From Patescibacteria group bacterium (lineage in GTDB: Bacteria > Patescibacteriota > Minisyncoccia > Phycocordibacterales > SBAW01), in NCBI GenBank assembly GCA_016176685.1, contig JACOWS010000002.1, positions 94,608-158,607 on the forward strand: 64,000 nucleotides of DNA. Direction: 5' to 3'. Every line of letters starts with the position of its first letter. Position 1 is the first letter of the stretch. Both the position numbers and the translations under genes were made by a program. This document shows, piece by piece, positions 1,305 to 60,621 of this stretch. The notes beneath the pieces were generated by a model, which saw nothing but the letters and a program-made list of their open reading frames with translations, was not told where the DNA came from and did not search any database.

Positions 1305-1886
1305 CTAAAGACCGAACCACTGTCGCAACTTCTGATCGTTCTCTATCCCTTCTGCTATAAGATATATAACTCCACCACCAAGTCGTAAATCCACTCTCAA
1401 AAAAGCAACGAGCTCTTCGCAGTCAAATGGACATATCCATACACTATTTTGAATACGCCGGAATCCCGCCTTTTGTAAAGCGAGGCGTAATTTGTCACGC
1501 ATTAGCCGGCGACTTTCCCAAATATCAAACATGACTATCCTCCACTTTCCATCCCACGTTTTTGGAACGCGTATGCGAATATGCTCGGCCGCATGCAACT
1601 TTTCTGCATGCGCCATTCCCTTTTCAGTAAGAGTGGCCGACCAGCCCTGCACGCCTTTCTTCCATTGTACCAGGCCTTTTTGCTCGAGCCGGCGAACGGC
1701 CTGCCTTAGCCGCCGTGTCAGCGTTCCTCTCGTAGATTCTGGGAAAAGATGTTTGCGTAGAACCGCCTCAGGGGCAAGGGCGGCACGCGCGTTTCGGGCA
1801 GTTAAACGAAAAATAGCCAGCGTGATTTTTTGTTGGATTTTCTCCCGTCGCGCGCGCTGTGCTATTTTTTCTTCCAGTTTTTCCAT
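1305..1886 (-). CDS. PaaX-like regulator-type protein: N-terminal winged HTH + C-terminal Cas2-like fold domain (paralog 1 of 3)
   Basis: 193 aa. wHTH-like segment LTRRLRQAVRRLEQKGLV. C-terminal W-D-G-K-W-R-I-V-M-F-D-I...LQKAGFRRIQNSVW matches the Cas2/PaaX-middle-domain pattern (hhVhYD....R......L...G.R.Q.SVF). Paralogs at 39728..40318 and 53698..54280. Confidence 0.7.
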   Translation of the reverse strand: MEKLEEKIAQRARREKIQQKITLAIFRLTARNARAALAPEAVLRKHLFPESTRGTLTRRLRQAVRRLEQKGLVQWKKGVQGWSATLTEKGMAHAEKLHAAEHIRIRVPKTWDGKWRIVMFDIWESRRLMRDKLRLALQKAGFRRIQNSVWICPFDCEELVAFLRVDLRLGGGVIYLIAEGIENDQKLRQWFGL

Positions 1887-4510: not shown

Positions 4511-4569
4511 ATGCTCTAGTAGTATTAGTATATAACGGTATGCCCCCGCACAAGACCCTTGAGCAAGAA

Positions 4570-5235: not shown

Positions 5236-5282
5236 GCAGTTTTCCACCTGCCGGGTATACTCTTTTCAACTTTTGCCGTGTA

Positions 5283-5546: not shown

Positions 5547-5560
5547 AACGACGATGCGCT

Positions 5561-6667
5561 TTACATGGAAACGGTCACCGATGTCACGCGGCTGTGTTCG
5601 CGCGCCTCTTTGTGGCCGGCATCGTGGAGGGCACCGACGAGTTTTTTTACATCTTCGGCGCGGTCCCGCGACGCCACCATGACCGCGTCTTGCGTCGTTA
5701 TGACCACAAGGTCTTTTACGCCCAGCAGTGCGGTTACCCGCTCGGCATGCACCAGGGAGTTCTCCGTATCAAGTAGCACCGCGGCGCCGCGCACCGCATT
5801 GCCGAGCGGGTCCTTATCGACACTTTGATACATCCCCTCCCAGCTGCCGATGTCCGACCAGCGAAAACGGCCTTCCACCACCGCGGCTTTGGAAGTTCGC
5901 TCCATAACCGCGTAATCAACGGACTTCTGCGGGGCGCGCGCAAACGCCGCCGGCTCAAGGCGCGTGAATCCAAGGTCAGATTTTGCGTGCGTTACGGCCT
6001 GTTCCACTTCTTTAAACATCTGCGGCTCATAGCGCGCGACTTCTTGTAAAAATACATCCGCTCTAAAGAGAAAATTCCCAGAATTCCATAAAAACCCGCT
6101 TTCCAGGTAGTATTGCGCGGTTTCTCTGTCCGGTTTTTCTACAAATGTAGAGACAACAAAAACATCGGGGACATCCAGAACCTCGCCTTGGCGTATGTAT
6201 CCGTAGCTGGTCTTGGGCTCTGTGGGGCGGATGCCGAACAGCACGATGCTGCCGTCCTCTGCCGCCCGTCTCCCCGTGATACACGCTTTATGAAATAATT
6301 CCGTATCGGGAATAAGCTGATCCGCGGCTAGCACCAACACAAGCGCTTTTGGGTTTTGCCGCGCCGCCAAGAATGTTCCGGCGAGTATCGCGGGTCCGGA
6401 ATCCCGTCGCACGGGTTCGAGAACTATGGTGGGAGAGACACCCTCCTCCTGCGCCTGCTGCCGTACAAAAAAACGAAAGGATTCGGATGTCAACACTATC
6501 GGTGTGGAAAAAAGATTTGGGTCGCTTACCCTACTCAACGTCTGCTGAAAAGTGGATTTTTCCCCAAACAGGGGTAAAAACTGCTTCGGCATCGTGTCGC
6601 GGGATACAGGCCAGAGCCTGGTGCCGCTGCCGCCGGTCAGTAGTATCGGTATGATGGGCGTTTCCAT
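5561..6667 (-). CDS. manC: mannose-1-phosphate guanylyltransferase (GDP-mannose pyrophosphorylase), nucleotidyltransferase part
   Basis: 368 aa. [13 protein letters not shown]...PKQF N-terminal NTP-transferase motif. C-terminal end ...EAREHSRV aligns to ManC ...EATEHRKV just before the cupin, then the frame breaks. Confidence 0.85.
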
Positions 6668-7171: not shown

Positions 7172-8337
7172 ACACGGGACATGCAATACTAGCCGCGGCC
7201 ACAGCGCTTTCCACCGAGGCGGCTGGTGTTTTACTTGCGTTGTGTTTACTTGTTGTCGGGTTTATAGTTTTGCTCCTGTTTTGGTTTTTTGAGACTCGGC
7301 GGCCGCTTGTACTTACCCGCACGGCAGAAAACCCCGTCCTTGGGCCAAACCCTTCTAGTTGGTGGGAGTCTGCCGCTGTTTTTAACCCCGCCGCGGTCGT
7401 ACATGACGGCCGCGTGCACCTGTTTTACCGCGCATTGGGGCAAGATGGCATATCGCGCATCGGACACGCCAGTAGCCTCGACGGCATCCATTTTGACGAG
7501 CGCTCACCCGACCCGGTGTATGACTGGGGAATGTTCAATGCCACACAGGCCAGAAACCTCGGCAGGCAACCATACCGACCACTTTCCTACCGCACAGACC
7601 TCTATGCCTCCGGCGGCGGCTGGGGCGGGTGCGAAGACCCGCGCGCGGTCAAGATAGGCGGGAAAGTCTATATGACCTTCGGTATTTTTGGCGGGTGGCA
7701 GTCTCTGCGTTTGGCAGTCACTTCACTTGCGCTTGGAGACTTTTCAAAACGAGCGTGGGCGTGGGCACGGCATATTACCATATCTCCGCAGAACGAAACG
7801 CACAAAAACTGGGTACTCTTTCCGGAAAAAATCGGCGGCCAATTTGCCATTTTACACGCACTTACCCCGCAGGTACTGGTCGACTATGTCGACTCGCTTG
7901 AGAACCTTGCCGACAATCCTATACGAAGCAATAACAATCGGGTCGGTTTTTCAAACGGCTGGGACTCATTTGTGCGCGGTGCCGCGGCCCCGCCAATAAA
8001 AACTCCCTATGGGTGGCTGCTCTTTTACCACGGGATGGACCCCGCGCGCGAGCCCCATATCGGCTACAAGGTGGGGGCGCTTCTGCTAGACCTCAACGAC
8101 CCGACCAAAATTTTATACCGCTCACAGGAACCCGTACTGACACCGGCACAGTGGTACGAGCATGACTGGAAGCCGAATGTAGTATACGCCTCCGGGGCGG
8201 TGGTATGGGGTGAGGATGTGGTGGTGTACTACGGCGGCGGCGACAAATACATTGCCGCCGCGAAAGCAAACTTGCGCGACTTTGTACGCAAACTAATGCA
8301 ACACGAGCATGCAGTACTTACTCCGGTGAAAAAATAA
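7168..8337 (+). CDS. GH130 family glycoside phosphorylase (beta-mannoside phosphorylase-like) with N-terminal TM anchor
   Basis: 389 aa. NPVLGPNPSSWWESAAVFNPAAVVHDGRVHLFYRALG...SRIGHASSLDGIHF is the canonical GH130 N-terminal signature. Hydrophobic helix at residues ~20-42. Confidence 0.85.
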   Translation: MNTGHAILAAATALSTEAAGVLLALCLLVVGFIVLLLFWFFETRRPLVLTRTAENPVLGPNPSSWWESAAVFNPAAVVHDGRVHLFYRALGQDGISRIGHASSLDGIHFDERSPDPVYDWGMFNATQARNLGRQPYRPLSYRTDLYASGGGWGGCEDPRAVKIGGKVYMTFGIFGGWQSLRLAVTSLALGDFSKRAWAWARHITISPQNETHKNWVLFPEKIGGQFAILHALTPQVLVDYVDSLENLADNPIRSNNNRVGFSNGWDSFVRGAAAPPIKTPYGWLLFYHGMDPAREPHIGYKVGALLLDLNDPTKILYRSQEPVLTPAQWYEHDWKPNVVYASGAVVWGEDVVVYYGGGDKYIAAAKANLRDFVRKLMQHEHAVLTPVKK

Positions 8338-8354
8338 ACGTATACTTATTCCAT

Positions 8355-10295
8355 ATGTACGTCATACGCAGAAGCTCGCACAACCCTATCATCGCCCCTC
8401 TGACCGACAAGTCGTGGGAGGCGCGCGGCACTTTTAACCCCTGCCCCACCAAAAAAGGCACCATAACGCATGTGCTCTACCGAGCCTTGGGCCTGCCCGA
8501 TGCTCTTATGACCCCTGCCGGCATTTCAACCATCGGCAAAGCGCTTTCGCTCGATGGCAAGCACTTTCAAAACAGACGGCAGTTTATCATCCCGGAAGAG
8601 CCGTGGGAAAAGTATGGCTGTGAGGACCCGCGGGTAACCTATTTTGAAGGAAAGTATTATATTTTTTATACTGCGCTTGGCGGCCAGCCCTTTGGCCCGG
8701 GCAATATCAAAGTAGCGTGCGCCGTATCAAAAGACCTGGAGACGGTAACCGAGCGACACTTGGTGACCCCATTTAACGCTAAAGCCATGGCACTCTTTCC
8801 CGAGCGCATTGGCGGCCCTGGCCGGGCAGGCAAAATAACGGTCATTGTGACCACCCACACCGACGAGCCGCCGGCCAAAATAGCCATTGCGCAGTGCGAC
8901 CGCATTGAAGAGCTGTGGGACCTCTCCTTTTGGGAGAAGTGGCACAGCGAGCTCGACGAGCACACTATAAATCCTCTGCGTTTCGATCACGACCATGTCG
9001 AGGTTGGCTCCCCGCCTATCAAAACAAAAGAGGGGTGGCTCTTATTTTACTCCTACATTCAAAACTACTTTGGCGGGGGTGAGCGGGTGTTTGGTATTGA
9101 AGCGATGCTCTTAAATCTGACCGACCCGCACCAGATTGTCGGTAAAACCAATGGGCCCATTATGGTGCCCGAAGATATGTATGAAAAGTACGGCATAGTG
9201 CCTAACGTCGTTTTTCCTTCCGGAGCATTGCTGCAAAAAAACGACCGGGTGGACATTTACTACGGCGGCGCCGACACGGTGTGTGCGCGCGCCTCACTCA
9301 ACCTACCAGACCTTATAGCCGCGCTTATTCCGCAAAAGCGGGTGGAGCTTGCGGTGCGCGCTAAAGAAAACCCCATCATAGAACCAAATCCCGAGCACCC
9401 GTGGGAAAAGAATGCGACTTTTAATGCGGGCGCTATAGACCTCGGCGGTTCGGTGCACTTGCTGTACCGCGCGATGGGCGACGACAACACCTCGGTCTTG
9501 GGGTATGCGTCAAGCAAAAATGGCATTACATTTAGCGAGCGCTCCAAGAGGCCGGCGTACATCCCGCGTGAAGAGTTTGAAAAGAAGCACGGATCGCCCA
9601 CCGGAAACTCCGGCTGTGAGGACCCGCGCATTACAAAAATAGGCGGCACTCTCTATATGACCTACACCGCCTTCGACGGCGTACACCCCACCCGCGTGGC
9701 GCTTACCACCATTACAGCCAGAGACTTTCTCGCCAAACGTTGGGATAAATGGAGTAAACCAATTTTAACCACGCCGGAGAATGTCAACGACAAAGACATG
9801 TGCCTCCTGCCCGAGAAAGTGCGCGGGCAGTATATGCTCTTCCACCGCATTGACCCGATGATCTGCGCCGATTTTTTGAACACGCTCGACTTTAGCAAAA
9901 GCAAGCTCACCCGCTGTATCGAGATCATGGGCCCCAGGCCGGGCATGTGGGACTCTCAAAAGATAGGCATTGCCGGGCCGCCTATAAAAACTAAAAAGGG
10001 GTGGCTCCTCATTTACCACGGCGTTTCCAAAACAAACACCTACCGGCTCGGTGCGGTACTTTTGGACCTTAAAAACCCGTCTATTGTGCTTTCCCGCAGT
10101 GTCGACACCATTTTTGAGCCGCTGGAAGAGTACGAGCGCGTGGGGTTGGTGCGCAATGCGGTGTTTTCCTGCGGGCAAGTGGTGCGCGGTGACACGCTCT
10201 ATATTTACTACGGCGGGGCCGACACGGTGCTGGGGGTTGCAAAAGTGTCGCTCAAAAAACTCCTCAAAATTTTACTGCCGGACAATTTGGCATAA
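8355..10295 (+). CDS. tandem double GH130 glycoside phosphorylase
   Basis: 646 aa with two complete GH130 repeats. NPIIAPL...GTFNPC...LYRALG at the start and NPIIEPNPEHPWEKNATFNAGAIDLGGSVHLLYRAMG from residue ~330. Confidence 0.85.
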   Translation: MYVIRRSSHNPIIAPLTDKSWEARGTFNPCPTKKGTITHVLYRALGLPDALMTPAGISTIGKALSLDGKHFQNRRQFIIPEEPWEKYGCEDPRVTYFEGKYYIFYTALGGQPFGPGNIKVACAVSKDLETVTERHLVTPFNAKAMALFPERIGGPGRAGKITVIVTTHTDEPPAKIAIAQCDRIEELWDLSFWEKWHSELDEHTINPLRFDHDHVEVGSPPIKTKEGWLLFYSYIQNYFGGGERVFGIEAMLLNLTDPHQIVGKTNGPIMVPEDMYEKYGIVPNVVFPSGALLQKNDRVDIYYGGADTVCARASLNLPDLIAALIPQKRVELAVRAKENPIIEPNPEHPWEKNATFNAGAIDLGGSVHLLYRAMGDDNTSVLGYASSKNGITFSERSKRPAYIPREEFEKKHGSPTGNSGCEDPRITKIGGTLYMTYTAFDGVHPTRVALTTITARDFLAKRWDKWSKPILTTPENVNDKDMCLLPEKVRGQYMLFHRIDPMICADFLNTLDFSKSKLTRCIEIMGPRPGMWDSQKIGIAGPPIKTKKGWLLIYHGVSKTNTYRLGAVLLDLKNPSIVLSRSVDTIFEPLEEYERVGLVRNAVFSCGQVVRGDTLYIYYGGADTVLGVAKVSLKKLLKILLPDNLA

Positions 10296-26681: not shown

Positions 26682-27380
26682 ATGAGATCACCATATGCAT
26701 TGCCTATCACTATTGTTGTTGCGGGGTTGCTTATTGCCGGAGCGGTTTTTTTGGTCGGTACGAGCAGAACGCCGGGGACTACCGGCACCGATGGAACAAT
26801 TAAGGCGCAGGCCTACGACCCAAGCCGCGACCATATTTTGGGCAACCCCAATGCGCCGGTTAAAGTCATAGAGTATGCGGACCTTGAGTGCCCGTATTGC
26901 AAGACCTTCCACACCACGATGCACCAGGTTATGGACTACTACGGCGAGGGCGGCCAAGTGGCGTGGGTATACCGGGCATTCCCGCTTACTTCAATCCACT
27001 CCAAAGCACCTAAAGAAGCTGAAGCGTCCGAGTGTGCAGCAGCACAGGGTGGCGATGCGGCCTTCTTTGCCTACCTCGACAAAATCTATGAGATTACCCC
27101 ATCGGAAAACAATCTCGACTTGGCAGAGCTTCCTCTGGTGGCCGGGCAGTTGGGGCTCAATGTAGACGCATTCAACAAATGCTTAAACGACGGCACCTAC
27201 TCGGCAAAAGTCACCGCAAGTTATAACGAAGCTATAATTGCAGGCGGCCAGGGCACGCCCTACGTGCTGATTATGGCAAACGATGCGTTGGTGCCGGGCG
27301 GCAACCTCTCCGGCTCACAGCCGTACGACTCTATGCGCGCCATCATCGACGCAGTCCTCCAAGGGATCCCGAGCAACTAG
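26682..27380 (+). CDS. membrane-anchored DsbA-like thiol:disulfide oxidoreductase
   Basis: 232 aa. N-terminal TM anchor. Thioredoxin-fold CPYC active site. Confidence 0.75.
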   Translation: MRSPYALPITIVVAGLLIAGAVFLVGTSRTPGTTGTDGTIKAQAYDPSRDHILGNPNAPVKVIEYADLECPYCKTFHTTMHQVMDYYGEGGQVAWVYRAFPLTSIHSKAPKEAEASECAAAQGGDAAFFAYLDKIYEITPSENNLDLAELPLVAGQLGLNVDAFNKCLNDGTYSAKVTASYNEAIIAGGQGTPYVLIMANDALVPGGNLSGSQPYDSMRAIIDAVLQGIPSN

Positions 27381-27385
27381 AGCCA

Positions 27386-27446
27386 AACAAAAACCCTCCG
27401 CGCAAGAGTAAGGGTCGCGTGTATCTCTCCGGAGCGGAGGGTTTTT
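27386..27446. terminator. palindromic element at the dsbA-like / nuclease convergent junction (family element A)
   Basis: AAAAACCCTCCGCgcaagagtaagggtcgcgtgTATCTCTCCGGAGCGGAGGGTTTTT. Outer stem CCCTCCGC/GCGGAGGG. Homologous to 43861..43936. Confidence 0.5.
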
Positions 27447-27459
27447 GCTTGGCTCCTCC

Positions 27460-31824: not shown

Positions 31825-38703
<6,879 letters not shown>

Positions 38704-39051: not shown

Positions 39052-39588
39052 ATGCACGAGTTAAAACATTATACGGATCCTTTTGACTTTATCCGCTACG
39101 CTCTTTCCTGCGAGCAAAGTTATGCAGGGGGCGGCAAAGCGGCATCCGTTCCTGAAATGCCCGGGTGGAAGGGGTACGAAGTATCAGACCCAGAGCGTAA
39201 ATGGCGGTTGGTTGATCGCTACTGGGTCAACAAGAGTGGAATGTCCGGCGGCTATACCTGCATGTGGGACGGCCGTGACATAAAAATGTACATGACCCTC
39301 CAAGGGTTTTACCCAAAAGAAGCCACGCTATTTCTGCGTGAGGTTCTCAAGTTCACCCACACGCACCATAAAGAGTTCCTCGGCTTCCGTGGTGCTTCGT
39401 GGTTGTCTAGGCCAAAACTCGGCTTCATATACAAAAATCGAATGTCTTCTGCTGAGGGGTTTGATCAGCCAAGCTGCTTCCGTGGCAAAGAGGCCGTCTA
39501 CAGGATTCTTCCGTCTAGTGAAGACGACCCGACCTCTTCAGCAACCCAGGTCGGATATCACCTCTATCAAGGTGCGATGTTCGCTTAA
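39052..39588 (+). CDS. hypothetical protein
   Basis: 178-aa ORF with SD AAAGGA 8 nt upstream. No recognisable domain. Followed by a strong terminator. Confidence 0.55.
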   Translation: MHELKHYTDPFDFIRYALSCEQSYAGGGKAASVPEMPGWKGYEVSDPERKWRLVDRYWVNKSGMSGGYTCMWDGRDIKMYMTLQGFYPKEATLFLREVLKFTHTHHKEFLGFRGASWLSRPKLGFIYKNRMSSAEGFDQPSCFRGKEAVYRILPSSEDDPTSSATQVGYHLYQGAMFA

Positions 39589-39593
39589 AAATA

Positions 39594-39628
39594 GAGCCGG
39601 AGCGCATTTGCGCTCCGGCTCTCAATAT
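39594..39628 (+). terminator. Rho-independent terminator (12-bp stem GAGCCGGAGCGC/GCGCTCCGGCTC)
   Basis: Perfect inverted repeat with 4-nt loop, followed by a T-rich tract. Confidence 0.55.
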
Positions 39629-39676: not shown

Positions 39677-39716
39677 TTTACCATATATACCGCTATAGCA
39701 TTGTTTATGGTAAATA
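39677..39716. repeat. cassette-2 flanking element, copy A (TTTACCATATATACCGCTATAGCATtgtTTATGGTAAATA)
   Basis: 37/40 identical to copy at 40324..40362. Terminal inverted repeat TTTACCATA/TATGGTAAA. Ends 11 nt from the stop codon of the 39728..40318 gene. Confidence 0.7.
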
Positions 39717-39727
39717 CCTTGTTGCAT

Positions 39728-40318
39728 TTATTCTAAATCAAAATGCTGTTTAAGGTGTTTATCGTTCTCTAATCCTTCCGCAATGATATATAGAATGCCC
39801 GACCCAAGCTTTAGATCACTCCGTATGAATGCAATAAGTTCTTCGCAGGGATACGGGTGTACCCAGACGCTGTCTTGCAACATATAAAATCCAGCTTTCT
39901 TAAGGATGTTTCGCAACCGCTCTCGAACTTGCTTGCGTTTCTCCCACACATCAAAAATGACCACCCTCCATTTTCCATCCCATCGACGCGGCTGGCGAAT
40001 TTCTATACGACGGACAACCTCAAGCCGTTCGGCAAATTTCTCACCCTTTGTGGTCAATAGTATTCTCCACTCCTTCCCTTTTCCTTCTTGCTGAACAAGA
40101 CCACGAGACTCTAGACGTCTTACAGCTTGTTGGATACGATACCCAGGCTTACGTTTTTTTGCGAGGTCTGGATCAATGCGCTTTAACAGCCTGAGAGTGT
40201 TTGGAGCTAGTAGCACCATAGAAAGTGCGGCCGCACTGTACAGAGCAAGGACGAGGCCATCCTGTACTCGAACTCGTTTAGTAATTTTTCGGCTTCGCTC
40301 CTCTAACTGCCCCATCAC
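39728..40318 (-). CDS. PaaX-like wHTH + Cas2-fold protein (paralog 2 of 3)
   Basis: 196 aa. RRWDGKWRVVIFDVWEKRKQVRERLRNILKKAGFYMLQDSVWVHPYPCEELIAF. About 45% identical to the 1305..1886 protein over the C-terminal half. Confidence 0.7.
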   Translation of the reverse strand: MMGQLEERSRKITKRVRVQDGLVLALYSAAALSMVLLAPNTLRLLKRIDPDLAKKRKPGYRIQQAVRRLESRGLVQQEGKGKEWRILLTTKGEKFAERLEVVRRIEIRQPRRWDGKWRVVIFDVWEKRKQVRERLRNILKKAGFYMLQDSVWVHPYPCEELIAFIRSDLKLGSGILYIIAEGLENDKHLKQHFDLE

Positions 40319-40323
40319 TCCAG

Positions 40324-40362
40324 TTTACCATATATACCGCTATAGCATAAATTATGGTAAAT
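40324..40362. repeat. cassette-2 flanking element, copy B
   Basis: Direct repeat of 39677..39716. Begins ~5 nt upstream of the GTG/ATG start. Confidence 0.7.
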
Positions 40363-40410
40363 ATGTTTTGATTTAGATTGTAACTGTAAAAACTATAGCC
40401 ATTGAGCTAC

Positions 40411-41905: not shown

Positions 41906-43861
41906 GTGACGCATAATAAGGATTCTTCGGAGAAGAAGAGTATCTCCGGCATTATTGAAATAACCCGCCGCGGCGTAGGGTACGTACCTTTTAGCGCGAA
42001 AACTACAAAGGGTAGTAAATCTCTCGAGGACATCGAAATCCATACAGAAGACCTGGCTGGTGCCTTAAATGGCGACGAAGTGGAAGTAGCGGTGTCAAAC
42101 CTATTTCCACGCCCCAAGGGCTTTGTAATACGCGTAGTGGCGAGGGTAAAAGAGGATTTTGTCTGTACACTTAAAAAAGAGGGCGCGGTGATGTTTGCAT
42201 TGCCGGATGATAAAAAGTTTTATAAACCAATTCTACTAAAAAAAGTTCCGCCGTATGCCGAGGGAGAAAAGGTGCTGGTGCACCTGCTCTCTTTTGACGG
42301 AAAGACGGACCCGCTCGGGAGTGTGACCGAACACTTGGGCCGTGCGGGAGAACATCGCGTAGAGATGAACGCGATAGTTTTGGAAAAAGGATTTGCCACC
42401 CGCTTCCCTGAAGTGGTTCTGAAAGAGGCGCGAGAGATAGAGCGCACCCACAAAAAAACAATTCAAGAAGAGGCGCGCGTGCGCACCGACTTCCGCGACA
42501 CCCCGACCTTTACCATCGACCCCGCGGATGCAAAAGACTTTGACGATGCGCTTTCTTTTGTGGCACTCCAAGACGGCACGTTTGAGGTCGGGGTGCACAT
42601 TGCCGATGTCACTCACTTTGTGCGCCCCGGCATGGCGCTTGAGGAAGAGGTGGTTAAACGCGGCACGAGTGTCTACCTGGTTGACTCGACCATACCCATG
42701 CTCCCGTTTGAGTTGTCGGCCGGTGTATGCAGTTTAAAACCAGGCGAGGACCGACTCGCCTTCTCTGCTATCTTTCGCCTCAACGACCAAGGAAAGGTGC
42801 TTTCTAGGCGGTTTGAAAAGACAATTATCCGCTCACACAAACGCTTTAGTTACGAAGAGGCTCAATCGGTTCTCAACTCCGGCAAAGGGCACTTTGCCGC
42901 AGAGCTCTGCACCTTGCGACACCTTGCGCGCATCTTGCGCAAAGGTCGCGAGCAAAAAGGAGCTATAGACTTTGGCGACAACGAGGTGCGCTTTACCCTG
43001 GATGAACACGGCAAGCCGATCAGCGTGGTGCGCAAAGAGCGGCTAGAGACCATGCAGCTTATAGAGGAGTTTATGCTCCTGGCCAATCGCGCGGTGGCGG
43101 AGCATATACACGAGCTGGCTTCGAAGGTGCCTGAAAAGAGGATGGTGTTTCTCTACCGGATACACGACGAGCCGAAAGAAGACCGGATAGAGGAACTCGC
43201 CACTTTTGTGCGAGCTATTGGGTATGAGTTTGGGCAGCACAAAAAAACGCCAAGCGCCAAAGACATCGCTAAACTTTTAAAAGATATAGCCGGCAAGCCG
43301 GAAGAGCACTTGATACGCACGGCAACCCTGCGCTCGATGGCCAAGGCCATTTACTCGACCAAAAACATCGGGCACTTCGGCCTGGCTTTTGAACACTATA
43401 CGCACTTCACCTCGCCTATACGCCGCTACCCCGACATGCTGGCACATAGGATACTAGCTTCACACTTAAGCGGTGCCCCGATTGAGCGGCAAGAGTTTGC
43501 CGACCTAGAAAAGAAGTGCGTTGCCGCTTCCCTTTCCGAGGCAAAAGCGGTTGACGCAGAGCGCGAGTCTATACGCTACAAACAGGTGGAGTATATGGGC
43601 ACAAAAATTGGCCAAATGTTTGATGCCGTCATCTCCGGCGTTACAGACTGGGGACTGTATGTCGAAGAAAAAGGCAGCGCCGCCGAGGGGTTGGTGCGCA
43701 TCTCTACCATCGGCAGGGAGTTTTACCGCCACGACCCCAAAAAGTACGCCATTGTCGGCGAGCGTACTAAAACTAAATATACGTTGGGCGACCGTGTGCG
43801 GGTCAAGTTGGTGGCGGCAGACCTCTCCGCCCGCACGCTAGATTTTGAGTTAGGTAGGTAG
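41906..43861 (+). CDS. rnr: ribonuclease R / RNase II family 3'-5' exoribonuclease
   Basis: 651 aa. RNB domain motif FTIDPADAKDFDDALS. C-terminal S1 domain. Confidence 0.9.
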   Translation: MTHNKDSSEKKSISGIIEITRRGVGYVPFSAKTTKGSKSLEDIEIHTEDLAGALNGDEVEVAVSNLFPRPKGFVIRVVARVKEDFVCTLKKEGAVMFALPDDKKFYKPILLKKVPPYAEGEKVLVHLLSFDGKTDPLGSVTEHLGRAGEHRVEMNAIVLEKGFATRFPEVVLKEAREIERTHKKTIQEEARVRTDFRDTPTFTIDPADAKDFDDALSFVALQDGTFEVGVHIADVTHFVRPGMALEEEVVKRGTSVYLVDSTIPMLPFELSAGVCSLKPGEDRLAFSAIFRLNDQGKVLSRRFEKTIIRSHKRFSYEEAQSVLNSGKGHFAAELCTLRHLARILRKGREQKGAIDFGDNEVRFTLDEHGKPISVVRKERLETMQLIEEFMLLANRAVAEHIHELASKVPEKRMVFLYRIHDEPKEDRIEELATFVRAIGYEFGQHKKTPSAKDIAKLLKDIAGKPEEHLIRTATLRSMAKAIYSTKNIGHFGLAFEHYTHFTSPIRRYPDMLAHRILASHLSGAPIERQEFADLEKKCVAASLSEAKAVDAERESIRYKQVEYMGTKIGQMFDAVISGVTDWGLYVEEKGSAAEGLVRISTIGREFYRHDPKKYAIVGERTKTKYTLGDRVRVKLVAADLSARTLDFELGR

Positions 43862-43936
43862 TTGGGCGGAAAAGTCCTCCGTGCAGGAGTAGGGCTCTTG
43901 TTTATCTCTCCGGAGCGGAGGACTTTTCCGCCCAAC
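43861..43936. terminator. 21-bp perfect stem-loop filling the rnr/smc convergent junction (family element B)
   Basis: GTTGGGCGGAAAAGTCCTCCG ... CGGAGGACTTTTCCGCCCAAC. The loop carries TATCTCTCCGGAGCGGAGG, shared with the element at 27386..27446. Confidence 0.5.
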
Positions 43937-46180
43937 TTATTTCGCTACGGCGAGCGCTTCTTCGAATTTTACTGAAAGGAGTTTGGATGCACCATCGGTG
44001 CCCATGGTGATGCCGTAGAGGACGCCGGCACGCGACATTGTCTCGCGATTGTGGGTTATCAAAATGAGCTGTGACTTCTTCGCCAAATTTTCTATCATAT
44101 CGCCGTAGCGGCGGCTGTTGGCCTCGTCCAGTGCCGCATCTGTCTCGTCGAGTATCAAAAACGGCGGTGGATTGACCTGGCTCATGGCAAAAATGAGCGC
44201 GATGGAGGTAAGCGCGCGCTCTCCTCCCGAGAGCGCGTTGAGACCTTTGAGGCGCTTGTGCGGGAGGTTAACCGCAATGTCCACCCCCTCTTCCACAGCA
44301 ACATCCTCTTCGTCATCATTAAGGTTCGACCTTACATCAAGGCTCCCCAAGGTCGAACCTTTTCGTAATCTTTTCTCCTTTACGACAGAAAGCGTGGCGC
44401 TCCCGCCGCCAAACATCAGTTTAAAAAACGCGTCAAACTCCCTGTTGATTTTTTTAATACCTTCTACAAAACGGGTCTCTAGTGTGTCGGTAAGATTGCC
44501 GATAAGTGCGTGGAGTTTTTCGCTCGAGGTCTCTAGGTCGGCCAACTCGCGGGCAAGAAACTGGTCGCGCTTTGTGGTGTCCTGGTACTCTTTAAGCACC
44601 TCCGCTCCCCCTCCAGCGCCAAGCCCTTCGAGTTTTATTTTCATCCTCTCAAGCGCCCTTCGTCTGCCTTCTTGTTTTGTACGTGACTCTTCCATTATTT
44701 CTGCAGTACCAACCTCCTCACCTCCCGCGGCGCTGATGCGGTAAGATTCGTACTCTAAAATTTCGCGCCCCAACAGCACTCCCGCTTCGGTAAACTCGGC
44801 CTTAAACGCCGCCTGGTCGCGCGCCAACATCTCCCCCTTGGCGCGCAAGCCCACCAATTGTGCCTCAAGCTCTCCGCGGCGAGCCATTGCCTCAAACAAT
44901 TCCCTCTGGGCCTCGTTTGCCGCGTCTTTCTCACTTTCTATACGGCGGCGCAGTGCGGCGACCTCAACCACCATGCGCTCTTCAACATTACCGATGTCGC
45001 AGAGCTCTTTTTCAAGTACGCGCTTTCTTTTTGCCAGTTCTTCGCCCTCTTTGGCGGGGACGTCCAGCGCCGTGATGCGTCCCACAAAATCTTTGGCGAT
45101 AGCGATGAGTGTTTTTATACGGTTGGTAAGTTCCGCGCCTTCAAGCGAGAGTGCTTCGCTAAGACCCTGCTCTACCTGCGTCGCAAATGCGCGTGTTTCC
45201 GCCGCTGGTACCTGCCCCTCTTGGTGCGCCACAAGGCGAGTGTGTGCGGCAAGCTCGCCCTCGATGCGGCCAAGCTCGCGGGTAACCGCCTCTTTGCGCT
45301 CACGTGCGGTGCGACCTCGAGCCTCAAGCGCTATAAGCTCCTTGGTATCCCTGTCACCACCTTTCTTTCCGCTAAGTTCTTCGCGCAAGCCGGCAATGCG
45401 TTGGTCGAGCGCCGCGCGCTCGGCAAGAGGAACTTCGTTTGCATCAGCCAATTCCTGCCCAACTTTTGCAATATAGACACTTTCCCGCTTAAGATACTCG
45501 GCATAAGCGCTGACGAGTGTATCGCGTAGTTCTTTCGCCTCTTCAATTTTTTTTACCTGGGCGGCAAGAAACTTTATGTGTGGCATAAGTTCGCGACGCA
45601 AGCTTGCCACCTCGCGCATATTTTCTGCAGTTTTTGCCATCTTGCGCTCGGCCTCTTCTCTCTTATATAGGTATGCGGTTAAACCAAGTGCATCCTCTAG
45701 CATCTCCCGACGCTCGCGGGTAGAGGCTAAGAGCGCGCGGTCTGCCTCGCCTTGTGAGATGATGTGGTGTCCCGTGCCGCCTATGTTGGCCTGCGACAAG
45801 AGCTCGGCTATGTCGCGCAGACGCACCTGCGAATTATTCAACAGGTAGTCGTTGACGCCGTCGCGGTGGACCACGCGTTCTATCACCACCTCGTCAAAGT
45901 CGAGGTTTAACCCGCGGTCGTGGTTGTCAAAGGTGAGCTTAACGCTTGCGCGGCCGGCGCGTGGCGAGCTTGTCGAACCATTCCATATCAAATCTTCTCC
46001 GCGCCGGCCGCGCATCGACTTCATCGACTGCTCGCCCAGGCAAAAGCGAAATGCCTCCGCAATGTTGCTCTTGCCGGAGCCGTTTGGGCCGACTATGCCG
46101 GTGACCGCGGACCCAAACTGTAGTTGGGTCTTTTTAACAAACGACTTGAACCCCGCGAGCTCTACCGACTTCAATCGCAT
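43937..46180 (-). CDS. smc: SMC-family chromosome segregation ATPase, shortened (~747 aa)
   Basis: ORF 43937..46306. Start at MRLKSVELAGFKSF. Walker A GPNGSGKSN. C-terminal LSGGERALTSIALIFA...LILDETDAALD. Long coiled coils. Confidence 0.85.
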   Translation of the reverse strand: MRLKSVELAGFKSFVKKTQLQFGSAVTGIVGPNGSGKSNIAEAFRFCLGEQSMKSMRGRRGEDLIWNGSTSSPRAGRASVKLTFDNHDRGLNLDFDEVVIERVVHRDGVNDYLLNNSQVRLRDIAELLSQANIGGTGHHIISQGEADRALLASTRERREMLEDALGLTAYLYKREEAERKMAKTAENMREVASLRRELMPHIKFLAAQVKKIEEAKELRDTLVSAYAEYLKRESVYIAKVGQELADANEVPLAERAALDQRIAGLREELSGKKGGDRDTKELIALEARGRTARERKEAVTRELGRIEGELAAHTRLVAHQEGQVPAAETRAFATQVEQGLSEALSLEGAELTNRIKTLIAIAKDFVGRITALDVPAKEGEELAKRKRVLEKELCDIGNVEERMVVEVAALRRRIESEKDAANEAQRELFEAMARRGELEAQLVGLRAKGEMLARDQAAFKAEFTEAGVLLGREILEYESYRISAAGGEEVGTAEIMEESRTKQEGRRRALERMKIKLEGLGAGGGAEVLKEYQDTTKRDQFLARELADLETSSEKLHALIGNLTDTLETRFVEGIKKINREFDAFFKLMFGGGSATLSVVKEKRLRKGSTLGSLDVRSNLNDDEEDVAVEEGVDIAVNLPHKRLKGLNALSGGERALTSIALIFAMSQVNPPPFLILDETDAALDEANSRRYGDMIENLAKKSQLILITHNRETMSRAGVLYGITMGTDGASKLLSVKFEEALAVAK

Positions 46181-46193
46181 GGTATGTATGGTA

Positions 46194-46895
46194 TCACCAC
46201 CCTTTTTCCTCAAGCGCATTTTGAGACGCGTCTTGCTCGGCCTCTTGTTTGCTTTTGCCGCTCCCTTCCGCCAAGAGCATATTTTTGACATACACTCCCA
46301 CGACAAACACTTTGTCGTGGTCTGGGCCGGTCTCGCGGATAACCGAGTAAAAAGGAGTGGCTCCTTCGGCTTCTTGCACTTTTTCCTGCAGGGTAGACTT
46401 GGAGTCGCGCCAAAGATTTTTCTTCACTATTTCGTCAATTTTTACCAGGAGATGCGCGGTGATAAAGTTTTTTGCCGCATCATATCCCTGGTCTAGGTAA
46501 ATGGCGCCGATGAGCGCCTCAAATGCGTTGGCAAGGAGCACTCCGCGCGCGCGGCCCTGGTCTTTTGCCTCGCCGCGCGACAAGAGTAAAAAGTCGTTCA
46601 TTTTTATGTCGTTTGCCACCGCGGCGCAGGTCACTGCATTAACCAAAGCCGCGCGATAGGCGGTCAGATCCCCCTCGGTTTTTTCCGGAAATTTATTGTA
46701 CAAAAAATGTGTTGAGACAAGCTCAAGCACCGCATCTCCCAAAAACTCTAAGCGCTCGTTGTGCTCAAGCGCTTCGCCGCGATGCTCGTTTAAGTAGGAG
46801 CGGTGCGTAAACGCCTGCCGCAAGAGCGCCGGGTTTTTAAACGTGAGGTTAAGACTGTGTGCAAAGGTATGTATGTCGCCCTGGGTGTCGTTCAT
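46194..46895 (-). CDS. rnc: ribonuclease III
   Basis: ERLEFLGDAVLELVSTHFLY signature plus dsRBD. Confidence 0.9.
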   Translation of the reverse strand: MNDTQGDIHTFAHSLNLTFKNPALLRQAFTHRSYLNEHRGEALEHNERLEFLGDAVLELVSTHFLYNKFPEKTEGDLTAYRAALVNAVTCAAVANDIKMNDFLLLSRGEAKDQGRARGVLLANAFEALIGAIYLDQGYDAAKNFITAHLLVKIDEIVKKNLWRDSKSTLQEKVQEAEGATPFYSVIRETGPDHDKVFVVGVYVKNMLLAEGSGKSKQEAEQDASQNALEEKGW

Positions 46896-49150: not shown

Positions 49151-52100
49151 ATGGCGGCTCCGTTTGTACACTTGCATGTCCACTCGCACTACTCCCTGCT
49201 TAAAGCCCTGCCCAAAATCCCCGACCTGGTAGCTGCGGCAAAAAAAGAGGGGTGCGAGGCGCTCGCGCTCACCGACCTTGGCAGCATGTATGGCACCATC
49301 GAATTTATAAAAGAGTGCCGCAAGGCCGATATAAAACCAATCGTCGGGCTCGACATCGCGGCCGAGGGAGGCGGGCGCATCATCCTTTTGGTAGAAAACG
49401 CGGCTGGGTACAAAAACCTGCTGGCGCTTATAACCGCCGCCAACTTTGCCGAGCACCAGGGCGAGCCATTGGTGACCCTTGAGGAACTTGCGGGCCGCAC
49501 CGAGGGGCTCCTTGCCATAGGAAATCATCTGGGCGGAGTTCGTGTGTTTGAGTATCAGAAACTGTTTGGCAAAGATAATTTTTATGCCAATGTCGCGATG
49601 CAGGAAATCTTTTATATTGCACCTGGGGACCGGCGCGCGTGGGAAACGCTGTGCGCCATAGGCGAGCGCGGGCCCGCCGACCGTGGCGACATAAACGACG
49701 AGGAGGAGAGCTACGCCTTCCCCACCGCTAAAGAAATGCAAAAACGCTTTTCAAAAGAAGCGCTCGATCAAACGCTGGCCATAGCGGCGCGATGCAACCT
49801 GGAGATTACTCTCGGCTCGTGGATATTCCCACCCTACCTTACCCAAAAAGGCGCTACCTATGACCAAGAACTGCGCCGCAATATAGAAAAAGGGTTGGCC
49901 GACCGCGGGCTCACAAAGACACCAGCCGTATGTGAGCGCATCGAGTACGAATATAAAATCATTTGCGACAAAGGGTACTCGCCGTACTTTTTGGTGGTTG
50001 CCGACCTTCTCCATTTTGCTCGCGAAAGCGGGATACTCGCCACCACGCGCGGCAGCGCCGGCGGCTCGCTCATTTCCTACTTAACCGGCGTCACCACCAT
50101 AAATCCGCTCGAGTATCTGCTACCCTTCGAGCGCTTTTTAAACCCCGAGCGCCCAAAAGCACCCGACATCGACATGGACTTTGCCGACAACCGCCGCGAC
50201 GAAGTTATAGACTACGTCCGCACAACGTACGGCGAAAACCGGGTAGCACAGATAGGCACCTTTGGTACTATGCTCGCGCGCGGGGTGGTGCGCGACGTGG
50301 CGCGTGCGCTTGGGCACCCGTACGGACTCGGCGACCGCATCGCGCGCGAAGTGCCGTTTGGTAGCCAAGGGTTCCCCATGACGCTTGACCGCGCGCTTGA
50401 AGAAAACTCGGCGCTGAAAAAAATGTACGAGAGCGAGCCCGACGTACACGACATTATCGACTTGGGAAAAAAAATAGAGGGCTGTGCGCGCCACATCTCG
50501 GTGCACGCGGCCGGGGTGGTTATCGCACCTGGACCCTTACTCGAGTACGCACCGCTTCAACGCGACCCAAAGGGGGGAAAAATTATCACCCAGTACGACA
50601 TGTACTCCATAACCGACGAGTATGGCGGCGTGGGGTTGCTCAAGTTTGACTTCCTTGGCATACGCAACCTGGCGATTTTAGCGCATGCGGTGAAGCTCGT
50701 GGAGCATATACGAGGGATAAGAGTAGACATAGAGCGCGTCCCCGTGGATGATGCCAAAACATTCGAGATGCTCGCGCGCGGCGAAACCGAGGGGACCTTC
50801 CAGCTGGGCGGCGCCGGGATGACACGGTATCTAAAAGAATTGCGGCCAACCTCCATACACGACATCAACGCGATGGTTGCGCTCTTCCGCCCCGGGCCGA
50901 TGGAGACCATTCCTTCCTACATTGAGCGCAAGCACAACCCCGCGCTCATTACCTACCTCGACCCGCGGATGAAGGATTATCTCGACTTTTCCTACGGCCT
51001 GTTGGTGTACCAGGATGACGTGCTGTTGAGCGCAATAAAAATCGCCGGCTACTCGTGGCTAGAGGCCGACGCTCTGCGCAAAGCGATGGGTAAAAAGATC
51101 CCCGCAGAGATGGAAAAGCAACGGGAAAAACTTATCGCGGGCGCGGTAAAAAACGGGATGTCGCCACAAAAAGCGGAACAGTTGTGGAAACTCATCGAGC
51201 CTTTTGCGGCGTACGGTTTTGGCAAGGCGCACGCCGCAAGTTATGGGCGCGTGGCATACCAAACCGCGTATATGAAGGCAAATTTCCCCGTGGAGTACAT
51301 GGCGGCGGTACTCACCGCCGAGGCGGGCGACATCGACACCGTGTCGGTGATGGTGCGCGAGTGCAAGCGCATGGGCGTGCCGGTCCTGCCGCCGGACATA
51401 AATGAGAGTTTTGGCGACTTTACCGTGGTGCTTAAGGGGTCGGGAAATCCTAAGGTGGAGCCTATTACTCGCTTTGCTCATGGCTCAGTCTCCACTTTAG
51501 GATTTCCCGACCCAAAAAAAGCTCCGCCTCCTGGGGGCGAGACTGAGCCGTCCGCAAAGCGGACTATAGGCTCGCCCCCAGGAGGCGGAGCTGCGGTAAA
51601 GGACTCGATCCGTTTCGGCCTTTACTCTATTAAAAATGTTGGCAGCGGTGTGGCCGACAGCATTATAGCCGAGCGTAAAGCACGGGGTCCTTTTGTATCT
51701 ATCTCCGACTTTTTGCGCCGCATCAAAGACCAAAACCTCAACAAAAGAGGGCTCGAGTCTTTAATAGAGTGCGGTGCGCTTGATTGTCTTGGCGAGCTTG
51801 GTTCGACAGACGCCGGCCGCGGCGCCATGCTCGCATCGATAGAGCTTTTGCTAGAGTATCACCGCGAAATGTCCAAAGAACAGCCGCAAGACTCGCTCTT
51901 TGCCGGGCAGGGTGACACGGCCGACATCACACTGCCGCCTGCAGAAGCCGCCACGCAAGCACAGCGCCTTGCGTGGGAAAAGGAGCTCCTTGGGCTCTAC
52001 GTTTCCGGACACCCGCTCGACCGGTTTACAGAACAACTTTCCAAACGGCCGATGACCTTGGAAGAGTTGCACAAAAAAATGACACCGGGTATGACCGCCA

Positions 52101-53617: not shown

Positions 53618-53657
53618 ATGTAATATTTACTACACTATAGTTTCTTATTTATTACAT
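53618..53657. repeat. cassette-3 flanking element, copy A (ATGTAATatttACTACACTATAGtttcTTATTTATTACAT)
   Basis: Direct repeat of 54283..54322 (shared ACTATAG..TT.TTATTTATTACA). Terminal inverted repeat ATGTAAT/ATTACAT. Confidence 0.6.
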
Positions 53658-53697: not shown

Positions 53698-54280
53698 TTA
53701 GCCGAGTCTGAAGTGGATGCGCAGAGCCCGATCGTCTTCCACCCTATCAACGATCAGATACAAGACATCCCTACCCAATCCAAGCTCCGCTTTGAGTAAA
53801 ACAACAAACTCTTCACAATTATATGGATATATCCATACGCTATCCTGGAGTCGCACAAAACCGATACCAGTAAGTATTGCCCGCACCTCGCCACGGAGTG
53901 CGTCTTTCAGGGATATCAAAAATCACAACGCGCCACTTTTTATCCCATTTTTTGGGTTTTTTTACCTTGTAGCCGCGAAGTTCCCATTGAGCTACACAAT
54001 TCTTTCCTTTTTTAGTTAGTACAACAAAGGATCCCCGACGGGTCTTTTCCATCATAAGAAATCCCCCTGCGACGAGTCTGGAAATTGCTTTTTTTGTTTG
54101 ATATTTTTTCTGCCGTTCGTACTGCTTCAAAAAAGGTTTTAGCATTGATAGAGCGTTTGGGGCTATGAGTGCTGTGGAGATTACTCCAACCGCAGCTACC
54201 GAGCCGAGTACGGCACGCCGGACAGTGGTCATGCGCATTTTTTTCCGCAGGTCTTTCTCAAGAGATACAGGTGGTTTCAT
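53698..54280 (-). pseudogene. PaaX-like wHTH + Cas2-fold paralog 3, disrupted by a frameshift near 53900-53920
   Basis: Two overlapping ORFs. 53840..54280 ends ...KWDKKWRVVIFDIPERR (then out of frame). 53698..53919 is the C-terminal half ...LRGEVRAILTGIGFVRLQDSVWIYPYNCEEFVVLL. Restoring one A in a GAAAGA run reunites them. Confidence 0.55.
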
Positions 54281-54282
54281 AC

Positions 54283-54322
54283 TTGTAGCGGATAACCTAC
54301 TATAGAATTTTATTTATTACAA
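54283..54322. repeat. cassette-3 flanking element, copy B
   Basis: TTGTAgcggataaCCTACTATAGaattTTATTTATTACAA. Begins 3 nt upstream of the start codon. Confidence 0.6.
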
Positions 54323-58283: not shown

Positions 58284-58399
58284 AGCGACGCCGCAAAAAC
58301 AAATAAAAAAGAGAGTCTAAGACGCGACGGCGTCGAGGCGAGGGAATTTATCAGCAGGAAATTCCCGCTCTCTTTTTTATTTGTTTTTGCGGCGTCGCT
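58284..58399. terminator. large bidirectional cruciform terminator between the 57380 gene and gyrB
   Basis: 32-nt arms AGCGACGCCGCAAAAACAAATAAAAAAGAGAG / CTCTCTTTTTTATTTGTTTTTGCGGCGTCGCT with nested hairpins GGGAATTT-9-AAATTCCC and CGACGGCGTCG in the loop. Confidence 0.5.
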
Positions 58400-60419: not shown

Positions 60420-60565
60420 AGGCTTTACCTATTTATTATACCAAATACCGGCCTATTTTGAAAGGGTGTGGATAGCCAATCCACCTTGCAAAACAAGGGT
60501 TCTAGGGGAGCGACCGGCACTTTGTTTTTTAAAGTCTATTGTATAAATAGGGTCAATTATAAATT

Positions 60566-60600
60566 AACCTTAATCGTAACGACCGTTATAGCTAAGGTTA
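60566..60600. repeat. solo copy of the cassette-1 element (AACCTTAatcgtaaCGACCGTTatagcTAAGGTTA)
   Basis: 28/35 identical to 1266..1300. Lies in the pheT-gyrB intergenic region with no adjacent PaaX-like gene. Confidence 0.6.
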
Positions 60601-60621
60601 AAATGTTTTAAATAATTGATG

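Follow-up and report, generated by a model that had tools for sequence, protein, structure and literature searches.

A pair of palindromes around a gene downstream of trmD

We analysed a 64-kb stretch of DNA from a Patescibacteria group bacterium (contig JACOWS010000002.1; hereafter the window), in which a short gene on the reverse strand is bracketed, between positions 39677 and 40363, by two copies of a 40-nt palindromic repeat. The gene, designated C2, lies beside trmD, KH and rpsP on one side and an ORFan and rpoBC on the other, with no paa genes nearby; the neighbors vary across the family to which C2 belongs. An earlier reading of this DNA (the original prediction) had treated the gene and two repeats private to it as a unit, and this held up; the same layout was recovered in 62 of 79 homologous loci.

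The downstream copy of the repeat (D; TTTACCATATATACCGCTATAGCATTGTTTATGGTAAATA, 39677-39716) and the upstream copy (U; TTTACCATATATACCGCTATAGCATAAATTATGGTAAATA, 40324-40363), both assigned, like the gene, to the reverse strand, are identical at 37 of 40 positions, as originally reported, and the three mismatches are adjacent (TGT versus AAA) and fall within one spacer. When up to three mismatches are allowed, the first 25-mer of the repeat occurs exactly twice in the window and not once in 100 shuffles. Both copies are imperfect palindromes: their outermost 9 nt are complementary (TTTACCATA / TATGGTAAA), and a further palindrome (GCTATAGC) occupies the middle. The center lies between 39695 and 39696 in the D copy and between 40342 and 40343 in the U copy. 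Based on the sequence, the significance of the repeat and a scan for family-type sites, the 38-bp site proper was placed at 39677-39714 in D (core 39692-39699) and at 40324-40361 in U (core GCTATAGC, 40339-40346). The palindromic ends and the spacing claimed earlier were likewise confirmed: 11 nt separate the stop codon from the D copy, and the U copy stands 5 nt from a GTG start codon, or 8 nt from an ATG. The U copy itself lies 48 nt beyond the trmD stop codon. A strong terminator had been assigned to the neighboring gene, and it is present as a GC-rich hairpin with a 13-bp stem at 39593-39622, which a terminator scan scored on both strands. This hairpin is common to the convergent gene (39052..39588) and the C2 cassette; since it lies beyond the D site, that site would be transcribed, within the 3' untranslated region of the cassette.

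The open reading frame (ORF) at 39728..40318 on the reverse strand is real, and the N-termini of homologs, together with a 195-amino acid database protein (P0001), place its true start at the ATG at 40315. The C2 gene therefore runs from 39728 to 40315 and encodes a 195-amino acid mini-PaaX protein; the GTG start at 40318 is also possible. P0001 (GenBank MBI2004826.1, from a Patescibacteria metagenome-assembled genome, MAG) is 100% identical to C2 and is annotated 'CRISPR-associated endonuclease Cas2'. C2 does contain a central Cas2-like domain, with residues 111-182 matching Pfam PF20803 (PaaX_M) at E 6.9e-20 and 71.4 bits (cutoff 24); its paralog C1, described below, matches the same model. 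Among the NCBIfam models, TIGR01573 (Cas2) gave a partial match of 29.5 bits against a cutoff of 24.5, and TIGR02277 (PaaX) a partial match of 45 bits against a cutoff of 264. The PaaX N-terminal model PF07848 was not among the Pfam matches of C2, nor was the PaaX C-terminal domain PF08223, and the protein ends at residue 195/196, straight after the Cas2-like domain. An AlphaFold2 model (mean predicted local distance difference test score 86.6) has a winged helix (helix 58-71, beta hairpin 75-88) joined through a linker helix to a domain of beta-alpha-beta-beta-alpha-beta topology at 117-192. The top Foldseek match of this model is Escherichia coli PaaX (8a39, E 8e-5), followed by Rv0674 and by Cas2 structures, which match the C-terminal half at TM-target values of 0.45-0.69. 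A sequence profile search also returned 8a39 as the best solved relative, and the Foldseek and hidden Markov model (HMM) alignments to 8a39 span both the winged helix-turn-helix (wHTH) and the Cas2-like part of C2. PaaX is the phenylacetyl-CoA-responsive repressor of E. coli and Pseudomonas (8a39, 3l09; PF07848, PF20803 and PF08223), and the best reading of C2 is a predicted truncated PaaX-type protein, with a winged helix and a Cas2-like domain and without the ligand-binding C-terminal domain.

A Cas2-type aspartate, D123, is invariant in a 29-sequence alignment of the family and has no counterpart in E. coli PaaX in a profile alignment. We regard the Cas2 label as a mis-annotation, given the 195-amino acid length, the fusion to a wHTH and neighbors that are trmD and an ORFan instead of cas1. 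No CRISPR-like array was found among the 20 largest repeat families of the window, elsewhere in which cas1 was not specifically scanned for. Pfam, NCBIfam, PHROGs and PADLOC gave no recombinase or transposase domain for C2. A defense-system or phage origin was also considered and rejected, as PADLOC returned only partial Cas2-like and wHTH matches and PHROGs only weak wHTH matches. The family comprises 1,183 clusters (50% identity) at E <= 1e-30, nearly all of 180-200 amino acids, and 4,185 at E <= 1e-10. Its members occur in several copies per genome, three of them in the window.

The two other members in the window own repeat pairs too, as had been proposed. Cassette C1 (1264..1923, reverse strand; gene 1305..1886; D site 1264-1301; U site 1886-1923) encodes a 193-amino acid protein 45% identical to C2; its arms are AACCTTA..TAAGGTT, its core is ACGACCGT, and its U site overlaps the first base of the start codon. 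Cassette C3 (53619..54321, reverse strand; gene 53698..54280; D site 53619-53656; U site 54284-54321; core CTATAG) is split by a frameshift into two overlapping ORFs of 146 and 73 amino acids and would be either a pseudogene or an assembly error; its D site is still palindromic, and its U site has no right arm. At 60564-60601 on the reverse strand there is a site without a gene (a solo site). Its arms (TTAACCTTA..TAAGGTTAA, 9/9 complementary) are of the C1 type, its core is that of C1, and it lies 20 nt past the pheT stop codon and ~145 nt upstream of gyrB, whose likely -10 element, TGGTATAAT, is ~110 nt downstream of this site and does not overlap it. A resemblance between the core of cassette 2 and this solo element, noted earlier at 60566, turned out to be out of register: ACCGCTATAGC is the left spacer plus core in cassette 2, whereas ACCGTTATAGC is the core ACGACCGT plus right spacer in the solo element, and the cores aligned on their centers are GCTATAGC and ACGACCGT, respectively. 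A scan of the window for the site architecture returned five sites against 0.18 expected, one of the five being an ordinary terminator hairpin.

Site architecture, covariation and a predicted autorepressor

To compare the flanks across the family, we used 80 homolog loci from species-representative genomes, all of them Parcubacteria/Patescibacteria MAGs, 79 of which were analysed for flanks. At 48 of the 79 loci the upstream and downstream flanks matched each other better than the best of 200 mismatched-partner controls, and after centering on palindromes a related palindrome pair was present on both flanks at 62. That relatives might carry the gene without repeats, a possibility raised with the original prediction, is thus not what we found. 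In these 62 cassettes, the site is 38 bp long; its 8-bp outer arms are variable, its core is conserved, and spacers of 5 nt lie between them. Identity between the U and D copies is 0.82-0.97 in the arms (positions +-11 to 18) and 0.84-1.0 in the core (+-2 to 5), compared with 0.61-0.74 in the spacers and a background of ~0.3 beyond +-20. C(-3) and G(+3) are invariant, and the cores are CGRYCG, CTATAG or hybrids of the two. The flipped central dinucleotide AC/GT (CGACCG versus CGGTCG) was considered as a sign of recombination and set aside; free R/Y variation at +-1 is simpler, since CGATCG and CGGCCG occur too. Some sites are perfect 38-nt palindromes, and family-wide the D copies are better palindromes than the U copies.

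The D copy lies 3-115 nt beyond the stop codon but at no set distance from the next gene (-18 to 920 nt for the 33 co-directional neighbors), and 23 of 56 neighbors (41%) are convergent; a role for the D site as promoter or operator of the next gene was therefore rejected as a general rule. U sites stand 7-100 nt past the end of a co-directional upstream gene in 39 of 58 cases. Across 977 kb of loci we counted 121 family-type sites, of which 109 adjoin a cassette gene and 12 are solo; 1-6 solo sites (mean about 3) are expected by chance, and several resemble GC-rich hairpins. Because almost all family-type sites flank cassette genes, the module appears self-contained, and the protein would mostly regulate itself. 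Cassettes are scattered singly, none of 87 cassette-bearing loci having two within +-4 kb. Private sites in this layout at 62 of 79 loci make an arrangement that appears distinctive and, as far as our literature search reached, previously undescribed. That search found no paper linking PaaX with Patescibacteria, Parcubacteria or the candidate phyla radiation and, on PaaX structure and operator, nothing beyond one review (PMC9493321).

The sites change with the proteins, as the original prediction had supposed. Between cassettes, arm identity falls from 13.5/16 where the proteins are at least 70% identical, through 9.4/16 at 50-60%, to 5.1/16 at 30-40%, and paralogs from one MAG always differ in their arms. 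Mutual information between protein columns and half-site positions is highest in the predicted recognition helix (residues 57-66), where the mean maximum Z is 6.5 as against 2.7-3.9 in other regions, and residues 57, 58, 60, 61 and 64 pair with arm positions 15-17. In the core, position +-4 varies together with residue 129, which belongs to helix alpha1 of the Cas2-like domain (Z = 21.5): where residue 129 is lysine, position 4 is C in 18 of 21 cases, and where it is arginine, position 4 is T or G in 34 of 39. This link recurs in several arm lineages and in related pairs such as L026/L047 (84% identity). C2 itself combines K129 with GCTATAGC, whereas its same-locus counterpart in a relative (L001) combines R129 with ACGGTCGT, the arms and recognition helices being conserved. 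In the Cas1-Cas2 complex, three residues at the beta1-alpha1 junction of E. coli Cas2, namely Asn10, Arg14 and Arg16, are in contact with duplex DNA (PMC6395717); when the two proteins are aligned by eye, residue 129 falls between the counterparts of Arg14 and Arg16. The covariation amounts to predictions, not proof, of which residue reads which base. We consider it very probable that the C2 protein specifically binds its flanking sites.

The U copy also carries a candidate promoter. An extended -10 element, TGGTAAACT on the sense strand (40322..40330, reverse strand), can be read where the end of the right arm is joined by two unique bases. It ends 6 nt before the ATG at 40315, the sense strand reading TGGTAAACT-GGAGTG-ATG, and this short distance implies that the C2 mRNA would be leaderless or nearly so. 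The equivalent bases of the D copy are TGGTAAAGA, without the final T. No canonical sigma-70 -35/-10 pair was found in the C2 region; a promoter of that type was rejected for C2, and only a -10-type or extended -10 element is plausible. Among the 62 cassettes, 33 have their start codon inside the right arm, beginning 16-19 nt from the center of the U site; the U site of C2 lies 10 nt further upstream than in this class. Of these 33 U copies, 19 contain a TAnnnT hexamer that ends 5-9 nt ahead of the start, most often TATACT, TATAAT or TACAAT, versus 6 of the 33 D copies (p = 0.002). The family pattern suggests leaderless transcription from a -10 element only, which a bound dimer could block.

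These features can be combined into a mechanism. A dimer would sit on each 38-bp site, with its winged helices reading the 8-9 bp outer arms, whose centers are ~29 bp apart, and with the N-terminus of helix alpha1 of its Cas2-like domains reading the conserved central core. The U copy would cover the -10 element and the transcription start, and in half of the family the start codon as well; a dimer bound to it would repress its own gene, the transcription of which is probably leaderless. The D copy would provide a second high-affinity site that cooperates with U through a ~650-bp loop or as a roadblock, and so would clamp and insulate the gene. We read the D copy as functional because its palindrome is the more perfect of the two, because it has no fixed link to the next gene, and because it persists in C3 where U is decaying; it is maintained at least as well as U, no T-run follows it, and its RNA folds are weak. 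That it serves the enclosed gene as a second operator, through looping or a roadblock, we infer from these traits. Taken as a whole, a PaaX-type autorepressor with two flanking operators, in which the D copy has a cooperative role, is the account that we hold to be probable, with considerable room for doubt.

The spot between trmD and rpoBC

We examined the history of the C2 cassette in 80 trmD loci from metagenomes (L081-L160), in which the order rpsP-KH-trmD-rpoBC is conserved. The spot after trmD is variable among these relatives, and its contents fall into six classes. In the empty class (L082, L090, L092-L096, L118, L127, L131 and others), a gap of 219-324 nt holds neither a cassette nor a site. 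One cassette lineage, A, is found in the window and in L001, L117 and L119, with proteins 54-59% identical to C2 and, where the sites were examined (L001 and L117), with the same arms as C2 (ATTTACCAT..AAGGTAAAT). A second, B, occupies the spot in L098 and L138 and is nearer to the window's C1 (57-59% identity), which sits elsewhere. Solo sites only, directly past the trmD stop codon and with other specificities, are present in L086, L088 and L153. Unrelated small ORFs were seen in the intermediate-gap loci examined, namely a 137-amino acid repeat protein in L104 and a 102-amino acid ORF in L153. In L113, trmD is followed by a gene for 278 amino acids on the opposite strand and then by a duplicated 3' trmD fragment (5731..5955, within 4001-6000), the stop codon of which overlaps a family-type solo site, TAGTACATATTTTATACGGTCGTATAAAATATGTAC, an arrangement suggestive of an insertion that made a second copy of the trmD end. 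Decayed cassettes were sought in gaps of 600-900 nt by an HMM search of their six-frame translations (E <= 10), and none was found.

The spot had been called typical of an insertion, and this was borne out only in part. Many relatives have trmD directly before the rpoBC leader, so the cassette is dispensable. It has nonetheless been at the spot for a long time, because lineage A, with the same arms, is shared with L001, L117 and L119 at 54-59% identity; moreover, there is no target-site duplication, no recombinase domain, and mostly conserved synteny. The outer flanks of 60 cassettes match over a mean of 1.48 nt, versus 1.42 nt in different-cassette controls. Insertion boundaries are undefinable at the nucleotide level, as the nearest relatives are 66-76% identical in the coding flanks and their intergenic DNA is not alignable. 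Synteny tracks protein identity, with neighbors shared in 13 of 20 cassette pairs at >=70% and in 60 of 2,078 below 40%. Cassettes next to thrS, where C3 lies, occur in L022, L029 and L045 with different arms; L070 has a cassette between pheT and gyrB, the position of the window's solo site, and in L065 a cassette adjoins gyrB. Cassette genes are richer in AT than their neighbors (GC lower in 65 of 73 loci, p = 9e-12; in the window, GC at third codon positions, GC3, is 0.38-0.46 versus 0.57-0.76), while cassette GC3 correlates with host GC3 (r = 0.75). Together, these comparisons suggest that the cassette is an old, mostly vertically inherited and dispensable module, occasionally lost, sometimes leaving a solo site, or replaced, and that it is not a recent insertion here.

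The original prediction had proposed a synteny check on whether trmD and the 39052 gene adjoin in relatives without the cassette. Many relatives without the cassette have trmD followed by the rpoBC leader, and the 39052 gene is in no relative. This gene (39052-39588, forward strand) encodes a 178-amino acid ORFan with its own strong terminator and a host-like GC3 of 0.57. It had no Pfam, NCBIfam, PHROG or PADLOC match and was absent from all 160 related loci. The ORFan, and not the C2 cassette, is the lineage-specific addition at the spot.

Several other features of the window were recorded. A segment of ~130-280 nt upstream of rpoBC aligns among several relatives, consistent with a conserved rpoBC leader. 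The rpoBC gene itself (31825-38703, reverse strand) is a single 2292-amino acid ORF that fuses RNA polymerase beta and beta' (rpoB-rpoC), and its N-terminal 500 amino acids are 62-82% identical in the trmD-linked loci of relatives. Two long hairpins with arms of 29-30 nt, at 27380-27455 and 43860-43937, have 58-nt cores that are 81% identical and may represent either one type of terminator common to both or a small repeat; the second stands at the boundary of convergent genes (41906..43861, forward; 43937..46306, reverse). A perfect 32-nt inverted repeat (58284-58315 / 58368-58399, 52 nt apart) lies at and just past the gyrB stop codon. Upstream of thrS, nested inverted repeats with 25-45 nt arms (51437-51592) are possibly a leader or regulatory RNA. 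At its N-terminus, the thrS ORF as listed carries an unusual extension rich in arginine and proline, a sign that the real start is probably further downstream. Three tandem paralogous segments ~1 kb apart at 7990-10237 (repeat families D6, D7, D11 and D17) indicate a small tandem gene family, and large repetitive ORFs with degenerate internal repeats occupy ~12.5-18 kb.

Competing explanations, related systems and significance

Several observations weigh against an autorepressor with two flanking operators. The copy-to-copy center distance ranges from 602 to 747 bp and shows no helical phasing (Rayleigh p about 0.8); such phasing is of little importance at a loop length of ~650 bp. The spacers of the two copies are alike at 7.1 of 10 positions, versus 3.7 of 10 for unrelated cassettes, a likeness that equals that of cassettes with >=70% identical proteins and exceeds what binding constraint alone predicts. 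At three loci (L052, L066 and L074), the copies match best in inverted orientation, and this, together with the spacer likeness, points to possible gene conversion or recombination between them. The covariation statistics are confounded by shared ancestry, and the pairwise residue-129 test is not significant at >=60% identity, where pairs are few. The invariance of D123 leaves room for a putative catalytic role. Finally, a repressor that would act mostly on itself alone is without obvious use to the cell, so this explanation is incomplete.

In a first alternative, the unit would be a selfish mobile cassette, its sites being recombination or transposition ends, the Cas2-like domain or a host enzyme the catalyst, and solo sites the empty or excised targets. 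A gene between two private sites bound by its product, with a promoter within one end, is the layout of an insertion sequence. The cassette's presence or absence at the trmD|rpoBC spot, the two lineages found there, the lower GC of cassette genes, the concerted evolution of the sometimes mutually inverted copies, and the invariant Cas2-type aspartate all fit, as do solo sites where relatives have cassettes (pheT/gyrB in the window versus L070 and L065; after trmD in L086, L088, L113 and L153). However, target sites are not duplicated; neither a recombinase nor a transposase domain was found, PADLOC and PHROGs giving only Cas2-like and wHTH matches; the window holds no near-identical copies (C1 and C2 are 45% identical); cassettes that are close to each other are mostly syntenic, with synteny decaying as they diverge; GC3 follows that of the host; empty trmD|rpoBC loci carry no site; and each end is a full palindrome, unlike the terminal repeats of transposons. 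We judge a mobile cassette unlikely. The further proposal of a hitherto unrecognized type of self-contained genetic element, in which the Cas2-like protein recognizes and perhaps nicks or recombines its two private palindromes, leading to gene conversion, excision to a solo site and replacement at preferred spots, we would put slightly lower still, as a rather long shot.

The sites might instead act mainly on neighboring units, as roadblock terminators or insulators or as operators for rpoBC or gyrB, with the bracketing of C2-type genes secondary. All solo sites examined lie 0-36 nt past a stop codon (trmD in L088, L113 and L153; pheT in the window), U sites mostly follow a co-directional gene closely, no terminator-like hairpin occurs between the trmD stop codon and the U site in the window, the cassette-less L104 has a GC-rich inverted repeat directly after trmD, and a family site stands upstream of gyrB in three genomes (the window's solo site and the U sites of L065 and L070). 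We nevertheless find this improbable, given how few sites are solo and how many of these chance or GC-rich hairpins could supply, the loose relation of the D site to the next gene, the position of the window's solo site well clear of the likely gyrB promoter, and the D sites of L001 and L117, which are 400-530 nt upstream of rpoBC and outside its conserved leader. That the repeats are RNA hairpins (a 3' stabilizer or terminator, or a 5' leader) instead of DNA sites we regard as very unlikely. The folding energies of the C2 copies are indeed -13.3 and -11.6 kcal/mol (z = -3.3 and -2.5), perfect 38-nt palindromes occur in the family, and the D copy, being upstream of the terminator, is probably transcribed. 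But the folds have large internal loops and no T-run, and shuffled sequences do as well as the C1 copies (z = -1.3 and 0.0). The start codon forms the end of the U copy in half of the family, so that this copy must lie upstream of the promoter or contain it. Conservation is in two blocks, arms and core, with relaxed and often non-complementary spacers (pairing at positions 6-10 is only 0.47-0.71), which fits a protein footprint and not a continuous stem, and the arms covary with protein residues. A known RNA element was also rejected in view of the weak folds and the Rfam search, which gave no family on the upstream repeat and on the downstream one only MicC (E 0.84, far below gathering). Lastly, the repeats could be a generic promoter or terminator of the trmD operon, as the position of the U copy 48 nt past trmD might suggest, or a chance duplication. 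Either is scarcely credible: cassette-less relatives have no such sequence after trmD, the same architecture recurs in unrelated genomic contexts, and the repeat is far beyond chance (0 in 100 shuffles). The conserved trmD-operon element that the original prediction had named as an alternative is therefore not what the repeats are.

The predicted autorepressor with two flanking operators has its closest known counterpart in PaaX. PaaX represses its own promoter by occupying a 39-bp operator of widely spaced inverted halves (TGATTC-N27-GAATCA), and binding of the phenylacetyl-CoA effector is assigned to its C-terminal domain PaaX_C, PF08223 (PMC9493321). Like PaaX, C2 has an N-terminal winged helix followed by a Cas2-like middle domain, and its sites span 38-40 bp, compared with ~39 bp, with inverted arms that overlap a -10-like box and the start in the predicted operator. 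Unlike PaaX, it has no effector domain and no paa genes nearby, and thus no evident ligand. The sites of its family, moreover, have an extra conserved core, which varies together with the Cas2-like domain; a predicted operator stands on either side of the regulator gene; radiation of the family has produced many specificities per genome, distinct from one another; and C2 retains the Cas2-type aspartate after beta1 that E. coli PaaX lacks in the profile alignment. CRISPR Cas2 resembles C2 in the beta1-alpha1 region, where C2 matches Cas2 models, and in the fold of the C-terminal half, and the DNA contacts of Cas2 lie at the beta1-alpha1 junction, the region of residue 129 (PMC6395717). Cas2, however, is a stand-alone protein of ~90 amino acids next to cas1 and an array, and its contacts are with the DNA backbone and non-specific, whereas C2 is fused to a winged helix, sits beside trmD and an ORFan, and is predicted to read a specific sequence.

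Other systems share parts of this organization. In the lambda CI (OR and OL around cI-rexAB), Lac and Gal loops, a distal operator raises local occupancy and tightens autoregulation. The C2 gene similarly lies between two predicted operator sets of the same repressor, but its cassettes have a single palindrome per side, a single short gene, few or no other targets, a dimer as the predicted oligomer and no helical phasing. Insertion sequences have a transposase that binds both ends and a promoter in one of them, and the cassettes likewise have one gene between private sites, a putative promoter in the upstream site, an AT-richer gene, a patchy distribution and solo sites; they differ in that C2 has no DDE, serine or tyrosine recombinase domain, no target duplications are seen, the sites are complete palindromes for a dimer, and inheritance is mostly vertical and syntenic. 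In the Tus-Ter system of E. coli, one of several known protein roadblocks, TerB lies in the tus promoter, Tus is monomeric, and its asymmetric sites are many per genome. C2 would resemble it as a monospecific DNA-binding protein that autoregulates through a site in its own promoter and whose sites may be barriers, polar or non-polar, at gene ends, but the family's sites are palindromic and nearly all at the gene's own flanks. Integron cassettes are promoterless ORFs, each with an attC site behind it, that stand in arrays beside an integrase, unlike the single cassettes described here, with their promoter-like element in the U site and private sites.

The tiny genomes of Parcubacteria/Patescibacteria have few recognizable regulators, yet the mini-PaaX family is large. 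These bacteria are described as nearly devoid of CRISPR; members of the family are routinely annotated as CRISPR Cas2, and correcting this would remove false CRISPR signals. It is unusual for a regulator gene to be enclosed so strictly by its own predicted operators, and the candidate rationales, namely insulation, looping or selfish persistence in minimal genomes, are testable. Should the unit prove to be mobile after all, a sequence-specific relative of Cas2 would be the engine of a mobile or addictive module, which would have implications for the way in which the Cas2 fold took on duplex DNA in CRISPR adaptation. With dozens of matched protein-site pairs and two sites per protein, the family also offers a natural data set for a recognition code, in which we predict that residues 57-66 read the arms and residue 129 reads core position 4. 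If the prediction for residue 129 is true, a domain of the Cas2 fold would read base sequence.

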